A stretch of DNA of 64,000 nucleotides from Tubiluchus corallicola. Taxonomy: Eukaryota > Animalia > Priapulida. The DNA is taken from assembly GCA_030141605.1 (NCBI GenBank), contig JAQGDQ010000322.1, positions 124,001-188,000 of the forward strand, given 5' to 3'. A model generated the notes under the pieces. That model saw only the letters and a program-made list of their open reading frames with translations. It did not search any database and was not told the DNA's origin. The first letter of the stretch is position 1, and each line of letters opens with the position of its first letter. Below, in pieces: positions 668 to 64,000 of this stretch. A program made the position numbers and the translations under genes.

Positions 668-1846
668 TCATTTTAGCTCTTTGTGGATTAGTTGTTTAGG
701 ACGAAGTCGTTTAGGATAGTGTCGAGTTTGGGTTGCTATACCAAGCTTTTTAACAAGTTTAGAGGGCATTTGAAATTTGAAAGCTTCCAAATAAAACCTA
801 TTTAAAAGAATAGTAGGCAAATGTAAGTCTACAACTAGTTGCTGTAGTTTAGAGGCAGATGTATCATCAAAGCTAATTTTCTTTGCCAGTTCTCTAACAC
901 ACAGTTGCTGCAAGTCACTAGTAGCATAACCATACAGTTTTCCAACTAGATTTTGGATATCCGCACAGATTCTAAACTCTGGAAAGTACTTTAATTGTTC
1001 CTTAAGTTCATTTTCAATGCTTGTATCGCCAAAGAAACCATTGTCTACTAGTGAAGATAAGTGATTATATTTCTCCTTGTATTTCTGATTTTGCCTCTTT
1101 GCCCGACGTCCTTGCCCGATGAGGAAGAACATGAGAGGAGAAAATTCAATCCCTAACCCCATCCTTCTGCTTTGATAAGTTGCTCTCATTCCTGTCTTTG
1201 CACCATAGTGGATCAATACTCTTGCTGTTGTAAAATCTCCGTGACACATGCTTAAATGCAGAGGACAACAATAGCTTACAACAGGAGGTGAACACCGTAA
1301 AGGTAAAATTACCTGGTGTTTTACATTGACGTCTGCACCCGCTTCACATAGTAACCGCAACAGCGTTGTCTCACATGGAGTTTTATCTACAAGAGCGTGA
1401 ATAACAGTGTTACCTCTACAAGTTGCATTGACATCGGCCCCATAGCTGATGAAGAGCCGAATGAGCGTTTCTGTTTGTTCTTTATATATTTCTGCTTGGT
1501 GAATTTGTTGCCAGTCTAATCCAATAATGGGAATTGAATAATCAACATGATACATCTTCCAACTTAGATATAAGAAAAGCAGCCTCTGGAATGGAGTATC
1601 AGGGAGTCTGTCAAGTTGCAGGTTTGAGTTTGCTCCATGTTCAACTAAACTCTTTGCCAAAGGAAGATGAATTATCTCTTCATGACCACCTCCAAGAACC
1701 ATGTGAAGTGGGGAGTAGTGGTCTGGTCCTTCGTTCAAGTATTCCTCATTTCTGTGAGCGCTAATTTCCTTCATTGCTTTATTATAATCACCATCTGCAA
1801 TGGCTTTTGTAAGCTCTGTTTCACAGCAAGTTCTGTGTTCTAGCAT
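668..1846 (-). CDS. Intronless ankyrin-repeat protein with C-terminal SOCS-box-like motif (ASB-like), 392 aa
   Basis: Ankyrin motifs (YSPLHMVL..LVEHGANSN, FISYGADVNA..GNTVIHALV, LCEAGADVNV, PLHLSM..LIHYGA). The C-terminal SDLQQLCVREL...LHLPTILL resembles the BC-box plus cullin-box of a SOCS box. Single uninterrupted ORF. Confidence 0.8.
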   Translation of the reverse strand: MLEHRTCCETELTKAIADGDYNKAMKEISAHRNEEYLNEGPDHYSPLHMVLGGGHEEIIHLPLAKSLVEHGANSNLQLDRLPDTPFQRLLFLYLSWKMYHVDYSIPIIGLDWQQIHQAEIYKEQTETLIRLFISYGADVNATCRGNTVIHALVDKTPCETTLLRLLCEAGADVNVKHQVILPLRCSPPVVSYCCPLHLSMCHGDFTTARVLIHYGAKTGMRATYQSRRMGLGIEFSPLMFFLIGQGRRAKRQNQKYKEKYNHLSSLVDNGFFGDTSIENELKEQLKYFPEFRICADIQNLVGKLYGYATSDLQQLCVRELAKKISFDDTSASKLQQLVVDLHLPTILLNRFYLEAFKFQMPSKLVKKLGIATQTRHYPKRLRPKQLIHKELK

Positions 1847-4747: not shown

Positions 4748-28136
<23,389 letters not shown>

Positions 28137-30759: not shown

Positions 30760-33700
30760 TTATTTCTTGTCAGCTATAGCTTGTTGTACACCGTTCACAG
30801 TTTTAGACTTGAGTACGCCATCTTCAAGTACCGTCACTGTTTCAACACCATTGTCTATCACTCTGGAAAAGAATGGTACAGTATTGAACGTCAAAACAAT
30901 GAAAAGACAATGCACATTAAAACAATGTGCAGTATAATTGGTGCAGTAGTGATCATTACAACAATGTACAGTACAATCCACATTAAAACAATGCGCACTA
31001 TAACTGGTATAGTATGATCATTAAAACAATGTACAGTACAATCCACATTAAACAAATGTACAGTAGAATCCACATTAAAACAATGTGCAGTACAATCAAG
31101 TACTCAACGACCTCACTTACTTATCATGTTGCTGATTGTGGCAGAACCGGGATCTAATTAATTTATCAAGAACACAGAGCTGGCAGATGTGTCTTACCAT
31201 TAGACTTATACACATTCTCCTCCCAATGAGATAAATACTGTAAGCAGTATGGCGGATAAAACTGCCTAAGTGATTTTTCTGGTAGACACCCATGCATTTA
31301 CCAGCCAGGCTCAGCACTGCTTTATTTCCGTTTACTAAGCAGCACATGATGAGTACTCCACCTATATTTCCCATCTTACAATGTCTTATTAATGCCACAA
31401 AACAACATATACCGTATACCATGAAATGAATCTGTGCTGGAAATATGAAATTACACTAGTAATGAAGCCACTCAGCGGCTTCTTAGAGCAGAATGTTAGA
31501 TAATACGAGCACTAATTAGTGCCAGCGCATGTTAGTAATCAGCAAATGAAAGGCGCCGCCTATAGTTGTCGCTTCCTATGCCTTATTCAGACAGTCTTGT
31601 TTTCATTACAATTGATTGCTGCTGACTCTGGCATACTAGTGAAGGCTGAAGATTGTTCAAACACTTTCTCGCGTGTTTTTTTTACTTTTTACATGCTTTT
31701 TTACTCTTTTTGTTGTACTTCTGAGGGAAATAAATACCGTATTTTCCCGTGTATAAGAGACCCTTTTTTGCTCAGAATTTTCACTTTAAAAATAGCGGGT
31801 CTCTTATACATGGGAGTAAGACATTTCAATAAGATGCATAAATTGTGACACTAATGATTTTAAAGAAATAAGTGCTCTACAACTGTTTTATTTCGAATAA
31901 TTATAGTTTCCTTTCAATAAATCTTCTCCATGGCTAAATTCTAATGATAAAATTAATGTACCGGGTAAGTTATTATTTTTTTAAACGTCTCTGGTATTGG
32001 AGAGAAATCGATTGTTCTGCAGCCAATCAACGCATCTGCATAAGCTCTCTGCATGCCCGTCGAGGTCATTGATACGTCGGCAGAGGTCAACGAGATGAGT
32101 CAGCCTAAGCAAGGCGTGTCGCGTTCGACTATGAAGCGGTTGTAAGCAATACAAGCATCGTGACACAGGCATTATCTCCTCGTTTTCCTGTTACAGGTTT
32201 GCAGGTACGCACTTTAATATATACCAGTACTCTTTTTCTACAACACATTAACTGGTTTTATTGTGTTTTCAGTACCGCACTGAGTCGAAAAAAGTTGTAC
32301 TCTACCCTCTAAAAATGTCCGTCTGAAAAAACTTTTTTCCAGAATTTTTGCCTAAAAATTGAAGGGGTCTCTTATACACGGGAAAATACGGTAATATAAT
32401 GTATAATTACAAAATTTAGCTATTCAGGTCATAATCAAAAAGAGTAAGCATTCTCTAACAGAAAGCGAATTTTAAATGAATTGAGTTTCTGGTTTTCAAA
32501 CTGAAACCAAAGCGAATTTCAACAGTTTCGAATACGAATCAAATGCAAATTCAGCTTCAAAAATTTCCGAATAAGTTTTCGAATCGCTAAAATAAGAGCA
32601 CTCTCACAATGATCGTGCATAGTACTTGATTTAGTTCTGCAGTAAAAACACTAATAATTTGTTTGTAAACCGTACACAGAAATCACAGCTAAATTGTTCT
32701 GACTGCATTGTTCTGAAGCAATCTGTCTTTCAAAGAATAAAACACAAATATAACATACCTAGACTTACTCAACGATCCACAGTAACAATGAACAATTTCA
32801 ACCATGGCAGTAACTACAGTGCACATTTTTCACACCATTTATTCATAAACAGTAACATTCCAAAATCAAGTTCTATTTCAGCAGTAGTGGATTTACGTGC
32901 CAAGCAAAAATACATTCATTTCACATCACAGCTCTGATAAATATCTGCCGACTCAGTGTCTCATCTTAGATGGTGTTCAGATATACGATAAAAAACAATT
33001 TCAGCTTTTGTCTTATCAAAGCTGCAGAATTTGCAAAGATCAAAACAAAATATAATGGTAGCTGCTGAACACATGACAGCTCATACAGGAAAAAATATCT
33101 TCACCCATGAATTCTGCTCATAGCAACTTTCATGCACTTTGGAGATTTTGGTAAAACACTAAGACTCTTAAAACGGTAACACCGTGTTTCAAGATAATGT
33201 AAACTTACTTTTTTGTTACTAATTTCTTTCCGTTAATAAACTTTGTGGACGTGGAGGTTTTGCGTACTTTCATTCCTGCTGTTGAGTCTCCTCCCGTGGG
33301 CCGCATACTACTTGAGCTACTGAAGAATGAGGTGAAACCGCTGTAAAATGAAAAACAAACTGCTTGAGTTACTGAAGAATGAGGTGAAACTACTGTAAAA
33401 TGAAAAACAAACTGCTTGAGCAACTGAAGAATGAGGTGAAACTACTGTAAAATGAAAAACAAACTGCTTGAGCAACTGAAGAATGAGGTGAAACTGCTGT
33501 AAAATGAAAAACAAACTGCATTCAGCTACTGAAGAATGAGGTGAAACCGCTGTAAAATGAAAAACAAACTGCATTCAGCTACTGAAGAATGAGGTGAAAC
33601 CGCTGTAAAATGAAAAACAAACTGCTTGAGCTACTGAAGAATGAGGTGAAACCGCTGTAAAATGAAAAACAAACTGCTTGAGCTACTGAAGAATGAGGTG

Positions 33701-36700
33701 AAACCGCTGTAAAATGAAAAACAAACTGCATTCAGCTACTGAAGAATGAGGCGAAACTGCTGTAAAATGAAAAACAAACTGCTTGAACTACTGAAGAATG
33801 AGGCGAAACCGCTGTAAAATGAAAAACAAACTGCTTGAGCTACTGAAGAATGAGGTGAAACCGCCGTAAAATGAAAAACAAACTGCATTCAGCTACTGAA
33901 GAATGAGGTGAAACCGCTGTAAAATGAAAAACAAACTGCTTGAGCTACTGAAGAATGAGGTGAAACCGCTGTAAAATGAAAAACAAACTGTTTGAGCCAC
34001 TGAAGAATGAGGTGAAACCGCTGTAAAATGAAAAACAAACTGCTTGAGCTACTGAAGAATGAGGTGAAACCGCTGTAAAATGAAAAACAAACTGCATTCA
34101 ACTACTGAAGAATGAGGTGAAACCGCTGTAAAATGAAAAACAAACTGCTTGAGCTACTGAAGAATGAGGCGAAACTGCTGTAAAATGAAAAACAAACTGC
34201 TTGAGCTACTGAAGAATGAGGCGAAACCGCTGTAAAATGAAAAACAAACTGCTTGAGCTACTGAAGAATGAGGCGAAACCGCTGTAAAATGAAAAACAAA
34301 CTGCATGAGCTACTGAAGAATGAGGTGAAACCGCTGTAAAATGAAAAACAAACTGCTTGAGCTACTGAAGAATGAGGTGAAACCGCTGTAAAATGAAAAA
34401 CAAACTGCTTGAGCTACTGAAGAATGAGGTGAAACCGCTGTAAAATGAAAAACAAACTGCATTCAGCTACTGAAGAATGAGGTGAAACCGCTGTAAAATG
34501 AAAAACAAACTGCTTGAGCTACTGAAGAATGAGGTGAAACCGCTGTAAAATGAAAAACAAACTGCTTGAGCTACTGAAGAATGAGGCAAAAGTGCTGTAA
34601 AATGAAAAACAAACTGCTTGAGCTACTGAAGAATGAGGTGAAACCGCTGTAAAATGAAAAACAAACTGTTTGAGCTACTGAAGAATGAGGTGAAACCACT
34701 GTAAAATGAAAAACAAACTGCTTGAGCTACTGAAGAATGAGGTGAAACCGCTGTAAAATGAAAAACAAACTGCTTGAGCTACTGAAGAATGAGGTGAAAC
34801 CGCTGTAAAATGAAAAACAAACTGCTTGAGCTACTGAAGAATGACCTAAATGAAAAACAAACTGCATTCAGCTACTGAAGAATGAGGTGAAACTGCTGTA
34901 AAATGAAAAACAAACTGTTTGAGCTACTGAAGAATGAGGTGAAACCGCTGTAAAATGAAAAACAAACTGCTTGAGCTACTGAAGAATGAGGTGAAACCGC
35001 TGTAAAATGAAAAACAAACTGCATTCAGCTACTGAAGAATGAGGTGAAACCGCTGTAAAATGAAAAACAAACTGCTTGAGCTACTGAAGAATGACCTAAA
35101 TGAAAAACAAACTGCATTCAGCTACTGAAGAATGAGGTGAAACTGCTGTAAAATGAAAAACAAACTGCTTGAGCTACTGAAGAATGAGGTGAAACCGCTG
35201 TAAAATGAAAAACAAACTGCTTGAACTACTGAAGAATGAGGCGAAACTGCTGTAAAATGAAAAACAAACTGCATTCAGCTACTGAAGAATGAGGTGAAAC
35301 CGCTGTAAAATGAAAAACAAACTGTTTGAGCTACTGAAGAATGAGGTGAAACCGCTGTAAAATGAAAAACAAACTGCTTGAGCTACTGAAGAATGAGGTG
35401 AAACCGCTGTAAAATGAAAAACAAACTGCATTCAGCTACTGAAGAATGAGGTGAAACCGCTGTAAAATGAAAAACAAACTGCATTCAGCTACTGAAGAAT
35501 GAGGTGAAACCGCTGTAAAATGAAAAACAAACTGCTTGAGCTACTGAAGAATGACCTAAATGAAAAACAAACTGCATTCAGTTACTGAAGAATCAGGTGA
35601 AACCGCTGTAAAATGAAAAACAAACTGCATTCAGCTACTGAAGAATGAGGTGAAACCGCTGTAAAATGAAAAACAAACTGCTTGAGCTACTGAAGAATGA
35701 CCTAAATGAAAAACAAACTGCATTCAGCTACTGAAGAATGAGGTGAAACTGCTGTAAAATGAAAAACAAACTGTTTGAGCTACTGAAGAATGAGGTGAAA
35801 CCGCTGTAAAATGAAAAACCAACTGCTTGAGCTACTGAAGAATGAGGTGAAACTGCTGTAAAATGAAAAACAAACTGCTTGAGCTACTGAAGAATGAGGT
35901 GAAACCGCTGTAAAATGAAAAACAAACTTCTTGAGCTACTGAAGAATGAGGTGAAACCGCTGTAAAATGAAAAAGAAACTGCATTCAGCTACTGAAGAAT
36001 GAGGTGAAACCGCTGTAAAATGAAAAACAAACTGCATTCAGCTACTGAAGAATGAGGTGAAACCGCTGTAAAATGAAAAACAAACTGCTTGAGCTACTGA
36101 AGAATGACCTAAATGAAAAACAAACTGCATTCAGCTACTGAAGAATGAGGTGAAACTGCTGTAAAATGAAAAACAAACTGTTTGAGCTACTGAAGAATGA
36201 GGTGAAACCGCTGTAAAATGAAAAACCAACTGCTTGAGCTACTGAAGAATGAGGTGAAACTGCTGTAAAATGAAAAACAAACTGTTTGAGCTACTGAAGA
36301 ATGAGGTGAAACTGCTGTAAAATGAAAAACAAACTGCTTGAGCTACTGAAGAATGAGGTGAAACCGCTGTAAAATGAAAAACAAACTGCTTGAGCTACTG
36401 AAGAATGAGGTGAAACCGCTGTAAAATGAAAAAGAAACTGCATTCAGCTACTGAAGAATGAGGTGAAACCGCTGTAAAATGAAAAACAAACTGCTTGAGC
36501 TACTGAAGAATGAGGCGAAACTGCTGTAAAATGAAAAACAAACTGCATTCAGCTACTGAAGAATGAGGTGAAACCGCTGTAAAATGAAAAACAAACTGCT
36601 TGAGCTACTCTTTAATGAGGCGAAACTGCTGTAAAATGAAAAACAAACTGCTTGAGCTACTGAAGAATGAGGCGAAACTGCTGTAAAATGAAAAACAAGC

Positions 36701-39700
36701 TGCTTGAGCTACTGAAGAATGAGGTGAAACCGCTGTAAAATGAAAAACAAACTGCTTGAGCTACTGAAGAATGACCTAAATGAAAAACAAACTGCATTCA
36801 GCTACTGAAGAATGAGGTGAAACCGCTGTAAAATGAAAAACAAACTGCTTGAGCTACTGAAGAATGAGGTGAAACTGCTGTAAAATGAAAAACAAACTGT
36901 CTGAGCTACTGAAGAATGAGGTGAAACCGCTGTAAAATGAAAAACAAACTGCTTGAGCTACTGAAGAATGAGGTGAAACTGCTGTAAAATGAAAAACAAA
37001 CTGCTTGAGTTACTGAAGAATGAGGAGAAACTGCTGTAAAATGAAAAACAAACTGTTTGAGCTACTGAAGAATGAGGTGAAACCACTGTAAAATGAAAAA
37101 CAAACTGCTTGAGCTACTGAAGAATGAGGTGAAACCGCTGTAAAATGAAAAACAAACTGTTTGAGCTACTGAAAAATGAGGTGAAACCGCTGTAAAATGA
37201 AAAACAAACTGCTTGAGCTACTGAAGAATGAGGCGAAACCGCTGTAAAATGAAAAACAAACTGCTTGAGCTACTGAAGAATGAGGTGAAACCGCTGTAAA
37301 ATGAAAAACAAACTGCTTGAACTACTGAAGAAAAAACATTTGCTCATTCTTCATTAGTGAATGCAGTATGTTTTTTTTGGTTTTTGTGTTGGTTTGTTTT
37401 TTTTTGGTTTGTCAAACTGCTTGAACTACTGAAGAATGATGTAAATGAAAAACATACTGCATTCAGCTAATGAAGACTGAGGTGAAACTGCTGTAAAAGG
37501 AAGAGCAAATGTTTACAACAAGTGAGACGATTTTTTTCTACAAAACTTACCCAGAGCTTGCGATGGCGTCGTTTCCAAAACCGCCAAATCCGAAACTTGG
37601 ACTAGGAAATCCGAAAAAACCGGTTGTATATCGCTGGCCTGTCAATCCCACCTGATTACGATTTTGCCGACTCCGGGACGGTCGACCTGCAAACGAACGA
37701 GTTTTAAATTACAAGCATCACAACTTTCTAAAGTTCTTTTAAGCTGCTGAAATGTGAAAACGAACGGTGTTAATATAGTAAAGAGACTTAGGAATAAAAA
37801 ACTTAAAGAACAAGGCAGTATTTTGAACAAAAGGCAGAAAACAAACGGAAACAAAAAGGTAAATATCACTGTGTAACGTTCACCTTAATCACCTTCTCCA
37901 GAAAAGGACTGCTTCCTTTTCTTCTTCCAGAGAGAGTTAAAAAGAGACTAGTTATCAAACAGTGTAAACGGTACTCTGTTAATTAAACATGCACAAAATA
38001 ACGGCCATGCAAAGCAAAATTCCCGTAAGGGAAAACTTCCTGACGTGGGTAAAACTTTCGCAAACCTCTGATCATCATAACTCTGGGGAATACCAAAAAA
38101 GAGGAGAAACACAACTCATGCAAAAACTATAAATACGATTCCTTAATGTTAAAAACTTAGGAATTACTGAACTAAAGTGTTAGCAGGAACAACCACACAC
38201 TATTGTTAATATGAAATAAGCTGTAGGCAAGAATGTATAAGACCAAAAGACATTTCCGTATCTTGTTCAGTGGCGGTTGTACCTGCGTAATAATTTACGT
38301 TACGTAATAAAATAGTTAAACCACCTTGTCCATACGGATGGAACCTATCGGCGATATCCAAGTCAAAATCTGAGCCAGCTGAAATAAGCAAACACATGCT
38401 CGTTTACAAGACGGTCGCTAACGAAGCATAAATAATTGGGAAGTGGATCACAGCTGCAGGTACCGCACAACATAGGAACACGAAGGAGATGAGAAGGCGA
38501 GACGAATGAATGACTCAACAAGACGGTCGCTAACGAAGCGTAAATAATTGGGAAGTGGATCACAGCTGCAGGTACCGCACAACATAGGAACACGAAGGAG
38601 ATGAGAAAGCGAGACGAATGAATGACTCAACAAGACAAGAAAGAACTTTAATCAGTCGGATACAGCACACAATAAACAAGCCAAAAACATTCGAAGCAAA
38701 TAAAACCAGCAGTTTATTAGTTTGGGACATTCAACTGATGAAGAATAAAACTGAACAGCACAGAGTTTGCAGTCACTGCTACCACAATGCATAACCACAT
38801 CAAAATAGTAAGCATGAGGCAAACAAAAACCCAAGAATAACAGATAAGAATACAAGTAGCATGGTAAGTAAACTTGCCTGCATCCTATCAACTAGTAACG
38901 TACGATTAACATTAATAATGCAAGAATGGAAGTGCAACAATTAATGAATGTTAAAGCAGAAGATATCAGACAAGAACAAACAAACAAGCACTAAAAGAAA
39001 GACACACAATGGCATAGCAAGTGTTTGCGGCACCCAGGGGCAAAACAACTTCTGTCACGCTAACCTTTTGATGTTGATCATTTGGTTCGTGTGTGAAACC
39101 AAAAATTGTTCACACTTTCTGCATCTGTGAGCCAAACTTTTCTTTTTTGACATGATGGGACAAAGTTTAACGAATTTTTTCTGAGAATCTCCCCGAGTTT
39201 GATTTGTGGTACTGCAGCAGAGTAACTCTTTTCTATGCATTAGTTACGCATAACACGACAGTCACTAAACATTCAGCTCCAGCATTAAAACATGCAAAGA
39301 TTATGAAAGATACAGAACACTACAGGTTTTCATAATAATACAATCAGCATTTAGAGAAACGTCACTGTTTCTTCCAAAATTATCAATCTGCTAAACCACG
39401 TGACACCCTCAACACGCCGTTAAGTAACAACATGAATCTTTTTTCTTTTGTTGAAGTTTGAAAACTTTTGTTAATGCTGCATCTGTCATTAAGAATTAAC
39501 AGTCAATGAGAACTCCAGAAGAATTTACGCCCTCTCACCATTAACCCGGGTGCGATCGCCCCTCTCGTGCCCACCTTGCTACCCCTCTGACGACACAACA
39601 AAAACAACAGAACACGACTGTTGCAACGCAATGAAACGCAAGAATGAGACAAACCGTTTCCACAAGCAAATCTAATGCATAAGAACATAGAAAAGCTGAC

Positions 39701-42700
39701 AACACTGTGATCATAAGAATTACGATCGGGTGAAAGCGGGCTGCATGGAAAAATCCCACAAACAACAAAACAGGCAACATTTAAAACTTCAAGTTTAAGA
39801 TGTATAAACACTACATAATATAAGGCATTTCAATGATAAAAGCTAATGAAATGATCCGATGAAATCATGCTAAAAGCATGCTGTTAATATTCATTATATA
39901 AAATTATTAATAAAACTTCCACTCATGTAAAAATGTGACAAATTCAAAAACAGCAGCAACAACAACAACAGCAAAAACATCACATTTCTTTAAATTACAG
40001 TCTAGCCTCGTTATGCCGCCACCCTCGCCACGTCATGCTAGGATGAGTGCTTATGTAAACTATATTCGTTATGTCGCCAAACAGACAAACTCAGAGGTGA
40101 ATCGATCAATACATATACTGCGTGTCGATCAATATAACCGCGGTATGTAGACAATGCTGCTGTACTTGGTTAATGCGTAGAGAAACTAAAGTGCCAAAGC
40201 TGCGTTTAAGTTTGAGTTCCCACAAAGTGTGAGCAAATTTACATGATGTCTCTGAAGCGAAAACTGTTTTGTCTTAATCCTGAACAAAAAAAAAGGAAAT
40301 TTGTATTTATCATACGAATAATTCTTCAAAGACACAGCAGGAAATTGCTACTGTATTTAGTGCGAAATTTGGTGACACTGTTAGCCGGAGAACTGTAGGA
40401 GATATAATAGCGAGTAAAGAAAAATGGATGCAAAGTCATGGTCACAGTGGCTCAACGAAATTGCGACGTGGACAGCATTCCAATCTGGACATGGCACTTC
40501 AGCTATGGTTCACGACTGCACGATCGCAAAATGTCGTCATCACTCATTCTAAGATTATTTTTATGACATTTTTTCATTTCTGATTTAATGTTGATTGGTA
40601 TCGTAATGCGGAATATATTTTATATGTACATAGAGGAACACTATGTTAATCAACTATTATGTACAGTATGTATATACATATAGACTAACTTCGTTATGTT
40701 CCCATTATCTCGCCATACTCGCCTCTCGCCAAAAATTTGCCCTAGACGGACAGTGGCGAGATAACGAGGTTAGACTGTAAGTATGAAAACACGTTACACT
40801 TACAGCAGTCAAAGGTGAAAAATGCAACACACCACACGAAACTTACTAATATCGGCAAAGAAGTCTGCAAATGGGTCTCGCCCGCCGAAAAATTCCCTAA
40901 AAACTTCTTCCGGATCTCTGAACGTGAAACCTCCGTGGAAAGTACCAAAATGGAAGCCAGCAAGATCATCGAATGCCGAACTGGTAGTTCCAGCTCCGTT
41001 GATTAGTCCCTCCTTGCCGTACCTGTCGTATATTTTACGCTTCTCTTCTATATAACACAAATACATAAAACTTAAAGCAAAACCGGACCCAATTCTAAAC
41101 TGGAGGTTAAAACAATTTACCTTGTAAAATATTGAAAGGAAACGCAGTATTTTTTTAAAGAATGACTGGTGTGAATATGAATTATTACCACACGAAAGTA
41201 ATTTCGTGTTCCTGCGGCTAGGTCTTTACCATTTTCGTCATTCGTTAGTTAGATGGGTATTAGTGCCCGCATTTCGGAACATGATGGATGAAAAACGGGT
41301 GCTGTACCTTTCACTACAGACGTGTTCTTTTGTGACATAATACACACATGCATGGGCACAGGAGTAAATTTAAAATTTCAGTTTTTATCTCAGAACTTGT
41401 GGAATTTTTGTACATTACACTGAATGTTACACGTTAGCACTGTACTTCAATATTTGCCTTTGCAAACACATGCAACACGTTCGTGGAATGTTTGTGCTGT
41501 TTAAAAATTATGTTCATTCATGATGTCATCAACAGCTGGACTCACTCGCTGATAATAAAGTTTTTAACCTATCATTTCATCATCAGAAATGCTTTGCAAT
41601 TACTACATGTGCTAACATGTACACATTTTACCCAATTTACCAAACTCAAAAATGGGGTAGGACATGAAAATCATACTCAAAAATGGCGTAGGACATGAAA
41701 ATCATACTCAAAAATGGTGTAGGACATGAAAATCATACTCAAAAATGGGGTAGGACATGAAAATCATACTCAAAAATGGTGTAGGACATGAAAATCATAC
41801 TCAAAAATGGGGTAGGACATGAAAATCATACTCAAAAATGGGGTAGGACATGAAAAATCATACTCAGAAATGGGGTAGGACATGAAAAATCATACTCAAG
41901 AATGGGGTAGGACATGAAAATCATACTCAAAAATGGGGTAGGACATGAAAAATCATACTCAAAAATGGGGTAGGACATGAAAATCATACTCAAAAATGGG
42001 GTAGGACATGAAAATCATACTCAAAAATGGTGTAGGACATGAAAATCATACTCAAAAATGGGGTAGGACATGAAAAATCATACTCAAAAATGGGGTAGGA
42101 CATGAAAATCATACTCAAAAATGGGGTAGGACATGAAAAATCATACTCAAAAATGGGGTAGGACATGAAAATCATACTCAAAAATGGGGTAGGACATGAA
42201 AATCATACTCAAAAATGGGGTAGGACATGAAAATCATACTCAAAAATGGGGTAGGACATGAAACTCATACTCAAAAATGGGGTAGGACATGAAAATCATA
42301 CTCAAAAATGGGTATGATTGAGTCTGTATACTCATACACATACTCATACTCTGTAAATTTTAGCCATTTTAGGTATTTAACACACCAAGACGTAGCAATA
42401 TTTCAGCAGAACTTAGACGTTCCAGTATTATTGAAATAACTATTGCATCACTTTGCCTACAACATTTTACTTTTAAAAACCTAGTTTGCTGTTCTGTTAT
42501 CAACTTTGATCTTCACAAACTTTGCTGTGAATTCGTTTATTTTAAGTAAATACAATTTCATCTTACTGTCTGAAAGGACTTCGTAAGCTTCAGATATCTG
42601 TTTAAATTTTCTCTCAGCTTCTTCTTTCTTTGTGGGATTTTTATCTGGGTGCCACTTTAGTGCGAGCTTGCGATACCTAGAAAAAAAATCAATATTCATG

Positions 42701-43497
42701 TTAACAAAACCCCGAGCAAACTGGCAAAAATCAACTTCCCGTTCAACAAGCAACGTAAGAAGAATCTTAATGTCATTATCCGGAAAGCCAATGCAAAATT
42801 TGTAGAAAACTTCCACTGGTGATAGATTTACAGACCTGGAAGCTTCCAGATTTTTCAATTTGTAAACATTTCAACTAAGACTATAAAAACGTCACACTCG
42901 AAGTTCCGCGGTATAGCCAACATCATAAATTTACCTTCTATTTAAAAACTTATGTAGTTTTAAGCAATAAGAAACTGCTGGCAGTCTGAAACCAATGAAA
43001 CAGAACATAGACAGGCATCTGATTATTTTCATACCTTGAAGGGCAAGCAAAAGTTAAAAATTTCGCAGCTTTGAAACACCAAGTAAAAACTGCAAAACTT
43101 GACTGCCAATTAATGAAGAAGCCAGTTGCTAACAGCACGGATTTAACGCTCGTGTTTTCAAATAGTTCTTGTAAAGCAACAAACCATTTGTTACAATTTG
43201 TTGAGTCTGAACCGTGCTTTTAGATCAAACAAGTAACAAATACACCACGAGTTAGACAACGTGCACAAAAAGGAGCTGAAAAATACGCTTTTTTACCGCT
43301 TGCTCGGTGGCATCTCTCTTCACCTCCAAGATGTCGTAATAATTGCTCAATGTCACTGCTTACTGCATTGCCTTATCCACTGTGCTACGAACACTTGTAT
43401 ACTTACTAATAATTAAGAATACTTACGCTTTTTTTATTTCTTGCTCGGTGGCGTCTCTCTTCACCTCCAAGACGTCGTAATAATCGGTCATTGTCAT
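30760..43497 (-). CDS. DNAJB6: DnaJ homolog subfamily B member 6-like (class B J-protein), about 268 aa, 7 coding exons
   Basis: Exons 43497-43427, 42676-42567, 41047-40847, 38378-38325 (least certain), 37686-37551, 33340-33209, 30862-30760 give 807 nt with consistent phases. J-domain [34 protein letters not shown] region [22 protein letters not shown] region, C-terminus [38 protein letters not shown]. Confidence 0.93.
30890..31097. repeat. Degenerate tandem repeat (cacattaaaacaatgtacagtacaatc) just upstream of the last DNAJB6 exon
   Basis: About 6 diverged units. Confidence 0.7.
31737..32391. mobile_element. Tc1/mariner-pogo-type MITE with TA TSD
   Basis: ta|ccgtattttcccgtgtataagagaccc ... 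gggtctcttatacacgggaaaatacgg|ta perfect TIRs. Confidence 0.88.
33311..37331 (-). repeat. 52-bp tandem array (about 77 copies, 4 kb) containing the DNAJB6 exon-6 3' splice site
   Basis: Minus-strand unit cagtttgtttttcattttacAG|cggtttcacctcattcttcagtagctcaag; the last copy runs into exon [14 protein letters not shown]. Confidence 0.96.
38407..38636. repeat. 112-bp tandem duplication
   Basis: caagacggtcgctaacgaagc... occurs at 38407 and 38519. Confidence 0.85.
39007..39589 (+). mobile_element. MITE family B (hAT-like)
   Basis: caatggcatagcaag ... cttgctacccctctg. Flanks aagacaca/acgacaca form a 7/8 TSD. Confidence 0.7.
39998..40777 (+). mobile_element. Internally deleted pogo/Tigger DNA transposon
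   Basis: ta|cagtctagcctcgttat ... ataacgaggttagactg|ta. The region about 40246-40545 encodes a frameshifted CENP-B-type HTH remnant ([33 protein letters not shown]). Confidence 0.85.
41072..41640 (+). mobile_element. MITE family C copy whose 3' end runs into a minisatellite
   Basis: ttaaagcaaaaccggacccaat start, colinear with 24605-25150. Confidence 0.7.
41645..42313. repeat. 31/32-bp minisatellite aaaaatggggtaggacatgaaaatcatactc, about 21 copies
   Basis: Visible tandem units. Confidence 0.93.
43287..43370 (-). pseudogene. Diverged duplicate of DNAJB6 coding exon 1 inside the following intron
   Basis: Reads [22 protein letters not shown] versus [23 protein letters not shown]. Both ATGs are mutated and there is one fewer A before the donor. 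Confidence 0.8.
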
Positions 43498-57638: not shown

Positions 57639-58420
57639 AATTCTCATTAAATCCCTACAACTCATCAACCAATTGAACATTTCCAACGGTTAGTTTACTG
57701 TACTTACACTAGAGTAAAGCTAATTAATTTCTTTGTAATTCATATGACTTTTATTAAATAAGTTGCGTCTGTCTGTCTGTCTGTTCCGCCTGTTACAATA
57801 ATCACCAAACTTGGTGCAGGTGTAGGCCTATTAAAGAACTGGGAATCAATCGGTTAAAAAAAGTCAAAGTTCAAGGTCACGAGATGGAATCAATCGGTTA
57901 AAAAAGTCAAAGTTCAAGGTCACGGGATCAAAAAACATCAAAATAAATTTCTGAATGTAGTGACTTCGTGTCGGGTGAGAGTTTACGTGTCTATAATAGC
58001 TCTCACTCTATTTTTAATCCGTAAATACCAGCTGACTGGAACTGGATTGCAAAAAAAAGGCCATTCCAACTCAAAAATTAAACTAGTACCAACGTGACTC
58101 CAACGAAGCGTCTGCACGATCTTACTGGCAGCCATTATAACAATAATTAAAGAATACAGATGAAACCAGCAAGCTTAAAAACCTCAATTAGGAGAAAGTT
58201 TGATAATGGTTTATTGTAATAATTCAAATCTTATGCTCTTGAAACTTGAAGTCTTCTACTTAAAAAAGTCTTCGACACACTAGAAGTTTGAAGTGCGCAT
58301 GATTAGTATAATCTCTGACAAAACAACTTGCTAGTTTGTGATGACATTGGAGGTTATGATTAGAGGTGAAACAAGAGGAAATCAAACATTATGCACGTGC
58401 ACGCTAAAAACATGGTTAGA

Positions 58421-59125
58421 TTTACAGACAGGTAAGGTGTTGTGGCAACCCCATGATGCTGAGGTAAAATAAACACACAGCACAATGGTTACATAATATT
58501 GCCACAAATTTACAGACAGGTGAGGTGTTGTGGCAACCTCATGTTGTTGAGATACAATAAACACACAGCACAATGGTTACATATTAATGCCACAAATTTA
58601 TAGACAGGTAAGGTGTTGTGGCAACCTCATGATGCTGAGATACAATAAACACTCAGCACAATAGTTACATATTAATGCCACAAGTTTACAGACAGGTAAG
58701 GTGTTGTGGCAACCTCATGATGCAGAGGTACAATAAACACACAGCACAATAGTTACATATTAATGCCACAAATTTACAGACAGGTAAGGTGCTGTGGCAA
58801 CCTCATGATGCTGAGGTACAATAAACACACAGCACAATTGTTACATATTAATGCCACACGTTTACAGACAGGTAAGATGTTGTGGCAACCCCATGATGCT
58901 GAGGTAAAATAAACACACAGCACAATGGTTACATATTAATGCCACAAATTTTCAGACAGGTAAGGTGTTGTGGCAACCTCATGATGCTGAGGTACAATAA
59001 ACACACAGCACAATAGTTACATAATAATGCCACAAATTTACAAACAGGTAAGGTGTTGTGGCAACTGCATGATGCTGAGGTACAATAAACACTCAGCACA
59101 ATGGTTACATATTAATGCCTCAAAT
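58421..59125 (+). repeat. 88-bp tandem repeat, 8 copies, each with CAG|GTAAG
   Basis: caggtaag/caggtgag at 58429, 58517, 58605 and so on to 59045. Confidence 0.9.
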
Positions 59126-61749
59126 TTCAAAGTTTCAAATGCTACAGTTCTGTCACAACAAAGAAAAATAAATGTATCAAAACGGCACGCCAGGTGGCAG
59201 GCAATGTCACTGAATGTACGGCAGGTCCAGCATTACTGTTTATGTTCAGAACAATGTTTCCTAAAAACTGCATTTAAAAGTTTTATAAAACAAGAGAGAA
59301 GTGATTTGATTCACTGTAATGAGATAGAAGATTTTCAGCCAAAAATGAGTTTATAATAAAATATAAGAAGTGGCAACAGCTGACGTGGGATTCGAAAAGA
59401 AAATTCCGCATTGAGAGAAATGCGGGCAGCTTGTAAAAAGAGACGTGACCAACATTGATTATTTTTAGCCACATTATTAGCCACAGCGCAATTATTAACC
59501 CTAGTAAAAATGTGAGCTTCAATCAATGCATTTTATAAGTTCCAATCATTATACATATAAACTCATAAAACTACTACCATTCTTTTAGTTCAAATTGTTT
59601 TTTGATAACTTTCTCGTAGCCAAACCAGCAAATTATAACTATATAGTTTCTGAACACAATGAACCATATTTTAAAGGAATTCAATGTTGTTAAGTCAAGT
59701 AGTAATACTAAATTGCATACATATGCAACTAAAAACTGGATAAAACTATATAGACGCAGCAAAGCAGCTTGTAATCCAGTTTTTCCTTCGGATCTCTTAT
59801 CTATGGAAGTCTCTAGCAGAAAACGATTAACATGTACCTCCCATTACTAGCAAATAAGTTAAAGCTGTAATTCTACTTTTAGACATATCTTAACCTTTTT
59901 ATTAAAACTCCTTACTTTGAGTGACCAATGTCCACTGGCCTTTTTAGGGTGATTTGCGCAGATTGGAAAACAGAATGGAAGTCATTTACCCACATACACT
60001 GCAGTCACTACAGGATTAGCATGAAGTTGTTCAAAAAATATTATAACAATTAGGGAATTATACATAATATAATCTCTGAATCAGACACGTTCACTCTACA
60101 CTGACTACACACAAAAGCGTGAAAACAGTCATTCAACACATGAACAAAATTTAAACGAAAAAGCTTAACAGTTCTAAGTGTTAATCAAACGGTTAATCAA
60201 TTTCTGGCTTGATTTTTTTATTTCATAAAAATCGCGGACTTTAACTCTAAAGTCTTCCCGGGTGACAAAAAAAGAGCTTAACACAAGACAGGATAGATAA
60301 GCCAAATGATCATATATTAAATGATTTCAAGATTTCACCCAATTCGTTTGTCACCTGATAAGATATCTTCATAACTTAGATTATGATTCACGATTTTAAT
60401 GATTTCAACTAATTCGTTTGTCACCTGAGAACTCTTTAGCACGAACGTCGAGACAAAATGTCTTAAATTATTCATATAAATTCTGGCTGCAATACGTTAG
60501 TTCTAAACATCCAATAGATAAAAAGGTAATCGCAGAGTAGCTAACAAATCCTTTAAAAGTAACGCGACCAAGGCAACATGAAGAAAATCGGTTTTGACAG
60601 TTGGGATTAGGAAAATGACTCGAGGCAAAGCTTAAATAGTAAACAGCTAAGAGTAAGAAGTACAGCTCACATTTTCAACACAAACGTTGCAGTAGGTGTC
60701 AAGGATGATGTCCGCTGGGTTTACGTAGAAACCAAATGTTGTGATGCTGGAATGTGACTTCATTTTTTCCTTTTACACAGTTTTACAGGAATAATTTGAG
60801 ATTAATTAAAAATAACACAATTTCTTTTTAAATACTATTCCATTTTACAAGCTCATTTGAGCTTTTTGCTAATTTTTCTTTGCAAAATGTACATCCTTTA
60901 ATTTGGAAGAATTGGAATTTATTATACATGAAATCCAACCAGTAATTCCACAGCAGGTGTTTTCTCCAAACTCGCTCAACCCATTCTTTTAAATCTTGCC
61001 TAAGCACAAACTAGTAAAAAGAACTAGGAGCACACTTCACTGAGTTCTGTATTCTAGGAGTTGTACAGTGCTATTGTAGGAGGAAGAACAAAACTACAAG
61101 GTACTTTGTTTACTTTTTAAAAACATCTCTACCTTGACAACCGAGAACAGTAATTCCAAGTAATGTTTCGAGAACTTTTTCCTGGGAAAACTAGAAAACA
61201 CATTAGGGATACCATCCACTATTCTCAACAGTGGAACTATTCATTGGTCTAGCTTTTAAATTATTACGAACCAGTGTTGTAGTCAAGTCTTTCAGTTCAA
61301 GTCCAAATCTTGGACTATTAATATTGTTGATAGGAATGATTTACGTGAAATGTCTGCACATTAGGCTTGCTGATACTGGAACTAAAGTATTCCTCGAAAT
61401 ATAGGTATGTTGGTACTAAGCAGCTCGCATGCATCCATTTTCTTTCTGTACTTCTAACAAAATTATCAATGGAAACATGTGAATGATTGCATTATATGAA
61501 TTTGATATCAATGTGCCAGTTTGATGTGCACCAACAATATGGCTTTTAGCCATCGATGATTTATTACTCTTTGTCACAAGATTTGCAAGATCATTCAAGT
61601 TTGTAGTACTGAAGAAACATAATTTCGATTTTCACTTTATTTCCTTATGTCCAGGTTTGTTTATTTCCTTAGAATGGGCACCGTCTCTAAATTACGCTTA
61701 GGTTGGAGAATTACAGCCTAGACTAGAACATGTTTTAATCCTTTCATAA

Positions 61750-62050: not shown

Positions 62051-62774
62051 AGCTGCATAACATAATCGCAGGCACCTGTCTTGAACTTTCTACAATCCCT
62101 TGATGTCAAATTATAACGATGGTGACCATACTACACTAGATTATTCTACCAAATCCTCAGGCTTTTATTCGTTTCCTCTTTACTTTTTTGATGGTGCATC
62201 ACAGGACCACAAAAATTCATTAACGCTTAATAAAAGCAACGTTTCTAAATAAAAAGTAATTAAACAATATACTGTAACTATACATACCATTGAATTTTTC
62301 TTCAGCATCAAAATTACACACGCTCACACATTTCCCCACGAACCATTTGTGTGACGTCAATGGATAATTTGGATTTTGGAAAAGTGCAGGGAACAAAAAC
62401 GATTACTGCGCCATCTGTGATGAATTTTAGTAATAAACTAATACGAATGTAATAGAACGACAAGCATTGGTCTGTGCTGATATCAATATAAAAAACAACG
62501 AACTGTACAAATAAAAGTATTTCTAACAAATACAAAGCACCTAAAAAGGCGATATATAAGTTTTTCTATGAATCCTGAAGTTAGTGAGCTCCTTTATTAT
62601 AAATGCCATGATAAAGAATTTTAACTCAAATTTTGATGTCACAATCAATCACATAGAAAAAATATCTTTTGTCACAATCATTTTTATCATTTTTAAAAGT
62701 CAGTATTAGAGACACTTTCATGCAAGCACATTTTCATGTAACAAGCAAAAGCAATATAGAAGCTTACTACCAAA

Positions 62775-63326
62775 ATGGATATTCAACTGAGTGATGCGGT
62801 CCACTACAGTCCAGAGGTTGATCCGCGGGAGTCACAGGAGCAAACAAACTTAATAGAAGCACAACAGCAGCAGCCAAATCCTCGAGTCCTTCAAATGTTT
62901 GTTCCAGATTGTCCCATGTGTCAGCAAGAGTGCGAGACACTAGCAAGTTTGCCACAGTCATTGGAGTCCTGCGACGAATCGAGTGGAACAACGATATCAA
63001 CACCGCCATCTTATGAGCAATCCTTCAATGATGAAAATTCTGGTACATATATGTATGGACTTGCACAGCCTCAAATGACAGGCTATGCAAATCAACAGCA
63101 GGCAGTTAGTCTCTCCCAAAACCCATCAATTTATGTTACATCTTCGGGAATAATCGCCCTGTACTTCAACAGCAATATTGTAATTGAAATAACACTAGAC
63201 AACGTTATCAGAGTCATAAATAACAATAACGGATCGCTATGTGCCGTAAATCGGAATGCGCACCGTAGTGTTATTTGGCACCCAGGAGGAAAAATAGTGC
63301 AAGATGGTGTTAGGGTAGAAACAGAG
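62775..63326 (+). CDS. Probable first coding exon of an uncharacterised protein (low-complexity N-terminus plus beta-rich domain)
   Basis: aaaATGG start, 184 open codons, likely donor GAG|gtttgt at 63326. The C-terminal part GIIALYFNSNIVIEITLDNVIRV..VIWHPGGKIVQDG looks globular. Confidence 0.65.
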
Positions 63327-64000
63327 GTTTGTGCATGTTTTATAAGTACTTTTTATGTTTGCTTGTAACTTAACTCTTCGTATTTTGGAAGTGTTTCGCT
63401 ACTGAAAAACTTCTGATGAAGTAAAGCACTGATTCAAGTCAAAAATTGATTCTTGAAATGTACAACCTATTACGGTCAAATTATGCTCAAGTTGGAGAAA
63501 TAAAATGAAATAAAATTTCGAAGTTAAATAAATCTCAAGTAATAAAAATACCAGAGACATAACATGGCAATATTTTCTACAATTTAATATACTGCAAGCC
63601 AGAATTCAACAATTGTTTGTGGCAAGACTAAAGCCTGGTTCATTATCAAAGACAAAGCCTCTAAAATCAGATACTAAACCGGCAGAAGTGTCTCGAATGT
63701 ACGAGATAAACAGACAGGATCAGCACGGTAACAAAACCGTTCTGAACCAGTATGCAGCCCAGCAGTCTCGCACCACTATCATGGCGCACGTGCACATAAC
63801 CACTCGGCCATGTAATATCCATTGATATCAATGAATTTTTGATCAGCACTTGACCTTGATATTTGCAATTGCTTACACACTTGGCAAGAATTGTAAAACC
63901 AAAACCATACATTCCACTATGCTGTATAATACAATTCTACAAACTATTATCCACAAATCAAGCCAGTAATAATGTACAAAATTATGGCATATGAACGTTT

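Follow-up and report, generated by a model that had tools for sequence, protein, structure and literature searches.

A tandem array of 78 units across the intron 4/exon 5 boundary of a DNAJB6 orthologue in the priapulid Tubiluchus corallicola

The DNAJB6 gene and the array in its fourth intron

The stretch of DNA analyzed here, referred to as the window, is 64,000 nucleotides (nt) long and was taken from contig JAQGDQ010000322.1 of Tubiluchus corallicola (assembly GCA_030141605.1, positions 124,001 to 188,000). On its minus strand it carries a gene that, by its sequence, is the orthologue of DNAJB6, and the fourth intron of this gene is filled with tandem copies of its own 3' end joined to the start of exon 5. 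The gene has a match to PF00226, its named homologues are DNAJB6, and the best match in the PDB is human DNAJB6 (6u3r, E 4e-57, in two stretches), which agrees with the name given in the initial annotation. The protein has the features of a class B J-protein of the DNAJB6 type, namely, an N-terminal J domain with HPD, a G/F region, a Ser-rich segment, and a C-terminal beta domain. The gene model has six coding exons with canonical boundaries and codes for 250 residues. In the direction of transcription the exons are at 43427..43497, 42567..42676, 40847..41047, 37551..37686 (136 nt), 33209..33340 (132 nt), and 30760..30862, the last with the stop codon. Exons 4 and 5 are exactly those that had been proposed earlier (37686-37551 and 33340-33209), and the intron between them (33341..37550) is a GT-AG intron of 4,210 nt in phase 2. 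Exon 5 ends in a strong donor, and the Ser-rich segment begins in it. In human DNAJB6, the S/T-rich region is important for anti-aggregation activity according to the available part of a preprint (bioRxiv 10.1101/2022.08.23.504914), a link that the initial annotation had also drawn.

A search with exon 3 found a protein of 250 residues, P0001, on a Logan contig of 1,866 nt in which all six exons are joined. The gene model differs from P0001 at three residues (247/250 identical). Since the joined exons span 12.7 kb in the window, we infer that P0001 was derived from a spliced transcript. Importantly, the string of 19 residues at the exon 4/exon 5 junction of P0001 is produced only by donor 37551 together with the last acceptor, 33340. 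The product P0001 therefore requires that the upstream copies of the acceptor, the decoys, be skipped, as had been claimed for about 70 of them. Among the runs recorded as RNA none was listed as containing the DNAJB6 gene, and the sole match in run X6, presumed to be RNA, was a 42-nt piece of the downstream intron, from a part of it that is multi-copy.

The array is a minisatellite on the minus strand that was parsed into 78 regular units from 37315 to 33311, and Tandem Repeats Finder (TRF) reports it at 33307-37332 with a period of 52, 78.4 copies, 91% matches, and a score of 6694. It makes up 94-95% of the intron. Both the figure of about 77 copies of the gene's own 3' splice site and that of about 95% of the intron, given in the initial annotation, are thus borne out. 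The units are 52 nt (n = 51), 53 nt (n = 21), and 40 nt (n = 6) long, and the 52-nt units are on average 97.6% identical to their own consensus. With the boundary set by P0001, a unit consists of 22 nt from the end of the intron and about 30 nt from the beginning of exon 5, and the final unit is the genuine intron/exon boundary of DNAJB6. This layout and the unit sequence are as first described, and the latter is the commonest in the array, but it accounts for only 18 of the 78 units. There are 31 distinct unit sequences, arranged in ordered patterns, and an exact 200-mer recurs at an offset of 407 nt, so that there is a higher-order duplicate of 407 nt, that is, a block duplication above the level of the unit. 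The TTTTACAG acceptor is present in 71 of the 78 units, there are 72 TTTTACAG motifs inside the intron when the genuine acceptor is counted, and a 23-mer of the genuine acceptor is common to 45 sites. The six 40-nt units lie within 34825..36794, are simple 12-nt deletion variants, and have TTTAG directly followed by GTCATT instead of TTTTACAG.

Because none of the contigs examined spans the array, it could be argued that it is an assembly artefact or is strongly inflated. This was checked with contigs from run X2, which is likely to be the source sample, and from X4 and X5, which are from other samples (S2 and S3) of other studies. Contig depth is not copy number, and the comparison of depth with 31-mer counts is a consistency check. 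With a unique contig of 662 nt (depth 153.8) as the single-copy reference, the array contig of X2 has 36.9 times the single-copy depth as compared to 42.5 occurrences of its 31-mers in the window, and the depth ratios of three edge contigs are 2.8, 2.0, and 1.1 as compared to counts of 1.5, 2.0, and 1.7. X4 and X5 also contain array contigs, which are thus found in S1, S2, and S3, and X4 has unique pieces of the intron (0-2 differences) as well as an edge contig of 82 nt (one difference). Such agreement, the array contigs of X4 and X5, and the ordered patterns of 31 different units make an artefact extremely improbable. The array is not an assembly artefact, and the read depth in X2 fits its copy number.

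Two other features of the gene were observed. A diverged second copy of exon 1 lies about 144 nt downstream of it (43286-43373, minus strand), in which both ATGs are lost and the donor is degraded. The last intron contains high-copy dispersed repeats at 31716-32410 and 32563-32716 that are likely to be pieces of transposons, and their contig depth is thousands of times that of single copy in X1 and X4.

Decoy acceptors and the choice of the last acceptor

To see what decoy use would produce, the 77 decoys, 71 of them TTTTACAG sites and six the sites of the 40-nt units, were translated through the gene model. All 77 lead to an early stop with products of 176-233 residues, every stop is more than 55 nt upstream of the last junction, and none of the products reaches the C-terminal domain. 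By the 55-nt rule for nonsense-mediated decay (NMD), which is assumed to operate in the host animal, such transcripts would be NMD targets, one of the two outcomes that had been predicted for them. The other predicted outcome was longer in-frame isoforms of DNAJB6 rich in Ser and Phe. In keeping with this, the Ser-rich segment begins within the sequence encoded by the unit and 24 of the 72 TTTTACAG acceptors are offset by a multiple of three. It had been stated that every third copy upstream restores the frame. Arithmetically this is so for the nearest such site (+156) only, units of 53 and 40 nt disrupt the periodicity, and even the +156 acceptor yields a truncated product of 190 residues. 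Furthermore, in an array made of the consensus unit TAG is met in all three starting frames because one frame of the unit holds TAG and 52 is not a multiple of three. The array is thus neither an in-frame tandem alternative acceptor nor a coding variable number tandem repeat (VNTR), as none of the 77 decoys keeps the frame to the C-terminus. Since all 77 stop early, extended isoforms are refuted for the window allele and for the consensus unit and deserve practically no credence, and NMD-type products are the sole alternative.

How would the spliceosome find the last acceptor? Splice matrices built from 18 donors and 18 acceptors of the window are crude, and by them 20 sites outscore the genuine acceptor. 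Predicted RNA accessibility also fails to single it out (0.43 unpaired as compared to 0.56-0.63). The local sequence does not distinguish the copies, and therefore the acceptor is likely to be selected by position. There is one GTRAG motif in the whole intron and it is the intron's own donor. The strong donor at the end of exon 5 is 132 nt downstream of the last acceptor and 184, 236, and 288 nt downstream of the next three decoys. The unique last 102 nt of exon 5 are purine-rich, with a fraction of 0.64 as against a mean of 0.34 behind the decoys, and there are six GAR triplets behind the genuine acceptor as against at most one behind the decoys. Exon definition is an established principle of splicing, and cross-exon pairing with the sole strong donor, together with the purine-rich unique part of the exon, would mark the last acceptor. 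A private TAAC at -29 may assist it. Transcripts that leak to a decoy would carry a premature stop and would be removed by NMD, so that their cost would be low.

A similar situation is known on the donor side. In the 37-bp VNTR of intron 7 of human F7 the exon-proximal donor alone is used, which was tested by mutagenesis (PMC1557585). As in the DNAJB6 array, identical splice sites stand in tandem, and the available text attributes the silence of the pseudo-sites to their position and not to their sequence. The F7 repeat has 5-9 copies, and the DNAJB6 array is its mirror on the acceptor side. The choice of the last acceptor appears to fit exon definition and the positional rule of F7.

Origin of the array and alternative explanations

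In the array, the intron 4/exon 5 boundary of DNAJB6 has been tandemly duplicated into 78 units, of which the last acceptor alone is represented in the transcript-derived protein, and the array is probably a tolerated by-product of minisatellite turnover and not a control element. Its seed would have been a 52-nt segment straddling the end of an intron that was then short (about 60 nt), and slippage or unequal exchange would have amplified this segment after a first duplication. At the donor end of the intron there is a first, diverged copy (37458..37490, minus strand) that looks, from its sequence, like the end of this ancestral short intron. The mixed unit lengths, the six units without an acceptor, and the 407-nt duplicate indicate that the turnover is blind to the reading frame.

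Arrays of this class have already been published as mirage minisatellites of amphioxus in Adh3, troponin C, the globins BflGb6 and BflGb9, and PGBD5 (PMC3087553, PMC3902484). According to the available text, the units of these lie head-to-tail over an intron/exon boundary so that the splice site is copied, the splice signal is missing from some units, edge copies differ, and normal mRNA is made by splicing of the exon-proximal copy. The DNAJB6 array has each of the corresponding features: a unit of minisatellite size (52 bp x 78.4) that crosses the boundary of its host exon (22 nt intron and 30 nt exon), a duplicate splice signal in many but not all units (71/78 with TTTTACAG), and, on the junction of P0001, which is one contig from an unspecified individual, use of the exon-proximal copy by regular mRNA. 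The unit length of 52 falls within the 10-72 bp range given for Adh3, and BflGb6 has the same layout of intron 3' end and exon 5' start, in a reported 3-6 copies as compared to 78 here. Length instability and lack of aberrant mRNA are also described there for the amphioxus mirages; the DNAJB6 array is likened to them on its structural features. The host is not Branchiostoma, because the 5-oxoprolinase (OPLAH) gene of the window is 69% identical to that of Branchiostoma and 70% to that of Ptychodera. A quick OPLAH tree, in which there were no named lophotrochozoans, placed the window next to Branchiostoma on a long branch and with weak support (82). Internal tandem repeats at exon-intron boundaries are also found in human segmental duplications (PMC2812944). 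There, too, introns have become longer through the expansion of minisatellites at gene boundaries. According to the available text these repeats are about 30 bp x 4 in size and are frequently accompanied by alternative transcripts or by new introns, whereas the DNAJB6 array has neither created an intron nor given rise to an alternative product that is viable. The DNAJB6 array is unusual mainly for its size. No report of it was found in literature searches, from which subscription journals were mostly absent.

The gene next to DNAJB6 is OPLAH, which is matched up to around residue 772 of about 1,310, and no exons beyond that point were found in the window. Tandem repeats make up 22% of the window, and two more arrays span splice sites in OPLAH. 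The first (10885..12072, minus strand) is a donor-side mirage at an exon end with 15 near-identical copies of a 79-mer, 52 nt of exon end and 27 nt of intron start, and is the direct counterpart of the F7 VNTR as the available text describes it. The second (5391..6050, minus strand) is an acceptor-side mirage with 15 copies of a 44-mer, 30 nt of intron end and 14 nt of exon, and nearly all of its units have TGAC, a pyrimidine tract, and YAG. Thus, three of the 14 arrays with a score of at least 100 in OPLAH and DNAJB6 span a splice site. In a test over the 45 boundaries of the two genes, some of which are approximate, random placement of the seeds gave an expectation of 0.85 (P = 0.047), and without the ascertained array the figures are 2 of 13 as against 0.78 (P = 0.18). 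The boundary arrays look like that portion of the general minisatellites whose seed happened to cross a splice site, and the same origin would hold for the other arrays of this repeat-rich genome.

Several points weigh against this explanation. The support for splicing is one protein on one contig, and the animal behind that contig was possibly another individual or a member of a sister species whose array differs. Assembled contigs lose minor isoforms, and NMD likewise conceals a leak. The exons that the three nearest decoys would make (184, 236, and 288 nt) are of ordinary size, and exon definition alone may therefore not exclude them. The highest-scoring acceptor by the crude matrix is that of the first copy, adjoining the donor. 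Finally, the TAAC variant and an inverted copy of the unit may indicate selection on the array.

The last point leads to the alternative that survives best, which is that a neutral array was made safe by local compensation, namely, by a new branch point at -29, by loss of one AG from the three units closest to the genuine acceptor, and by an inverted copy that hides the one pseudo-exon with a donor of its own. A new branch point would be needed because the sequence upstream of the acceptor is exon-derived after the duplication. In the penultimate unit TAAC replaces the consensus TAGC (33368..33371, minus strand), which would place a putative branch-point A at -29 of the genuine acceptor. The variant is found in three of the 78 units and in the X2 contig covering 33340-33400 with 0 differences, and a TRAY motif at -18..-45 is present at only two of the 72 acceptors, the genuine one included. 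Two AGs, at -24 and -21, are 5 and 8 nt past the candidate A, and AGs within 12-15 nt of a branch point can be bypassed according to the available text of Gooding 2006 (PMC1431707). The AG at the position of TAG is lost in six units, three of which are the three next to the genuine copy. The acceptor of the first copy, 37491, has the best score, is 60 nt from the donor, has no AG in -45..-3, and with a weak donor at 37457 would define a candidate pseudo-exon of 33 nt that contains a stop. An inverted partial copy of the unit (37334..37375, plus strand) is predicted to pair in the pre-mRNA with 37448-37481, over this weak donor, in a stem of about 32 bp (z = -4.3) that leaves the donor with an unpaired probability of 0.0. 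On the other hand, all these features were noticed post hoc. Pairing with its source is inherent in any inverted copy, and hence the z-score is uninformative on function. Array edges escape homogenization and gather private variants anyway, as the available part of PMC3087553 has it. The OPLAH 44-mer has TGAC in 14 of its 15 units, so that there is no private branch point at its genuine site. TAAC is also unconfirmed in the other samples, as X4 has neither cover of the unique part of exon 5 nor a TAAC contig and X5 has one array contig. Compensation is therefore possible but doubtful, and it would supplement the by-product explanation rather than replace it.

A stronger version, that selection rebuilt the identity of the acceptor through the branch point at -29 and an inverted copy folding away the sole pseudo-exon with its own donor, and that leak to the roughly 70 decoys scales with allele length and sets the chaperone dose via NMD, is unlikely. 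The array could also be a copy-number dial, in which longer alleles divert more pre-mRNA to decoys and NMD and so tune the dose of DNAJB6. A premature stop behind every decoy and the presence of the array in three samples are consistent with a dial, and a human intronic VNTR, that of ABCA7, is reported in the text available to affect splicing. Decoy use, however, has no RNA support, OPLAH introns carry similar arrays at a near-chance rate, and mirages are reported without aberrant mRNA as far as the available text goes (PMC3087553, PMC3902484). We consider a dial quite improbable. Recursive splicing, by which the intron would be removed stepwise at the six 40-nt units spread through the array, in each of which GT directly follows AG, is very improbable, since these acceptors score 5.7 as compared to 8.7-12.1 for full units by the crude matrix, their GT is absent from the internal donors scoring above 3, the units are plain deletion variants, and an intron of 4 kb requires no recursive steps.

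Biologically, the DNAJB6 array is an ordinary, though large, representative of a class of repeats that has already been published. It is nevertheless a natural test bench, with about 70 near-identical acceptors before one essential-type exon, in which position (exon definition), branch-point identity, and clean-up by NMD could be separated in 3' splice-site choice, mirroring the donor experiments on F7. It illustrates one route by which an intron of about 60 nt can reach 4.2 kb. Gene prediction and the mapping of junctions with short reads can both be misled by it.

Other arrays and open reading frames in the window

Four more arrays, at 8800-9051, 30874-31097, 18141-18260, and 13245-14059, end near a splice site without spanning it. 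The gaps are 2, 12, 34, and 55 nt, respectively, and in three cases the splice site is an acceptor. An 88-bp x 8 array on the plus strand (58420-59127) has a unit with TTTACAG and then ACAG and GTAAGG, an acceptor-like and a donor-like sequence 4 nt apart, and its host exon was not identified in the window. Of the 138 open reading frames listed outside OPLAH and DNAJB6, 128 were scanned against Pfam, one alone was above the cut-off, and for this reason the arrays beyond 44 kb are not tied to exons. That frame (671-1846, minus strand) has 392 codons with ankyrin repeats and is downstream of the mapped OPLAH exons. A frame of 202 codons on the plus strand (62760-63365), with no Pfam match, is rich in Gln, Pro, and Ser and contains a CxxC pair.

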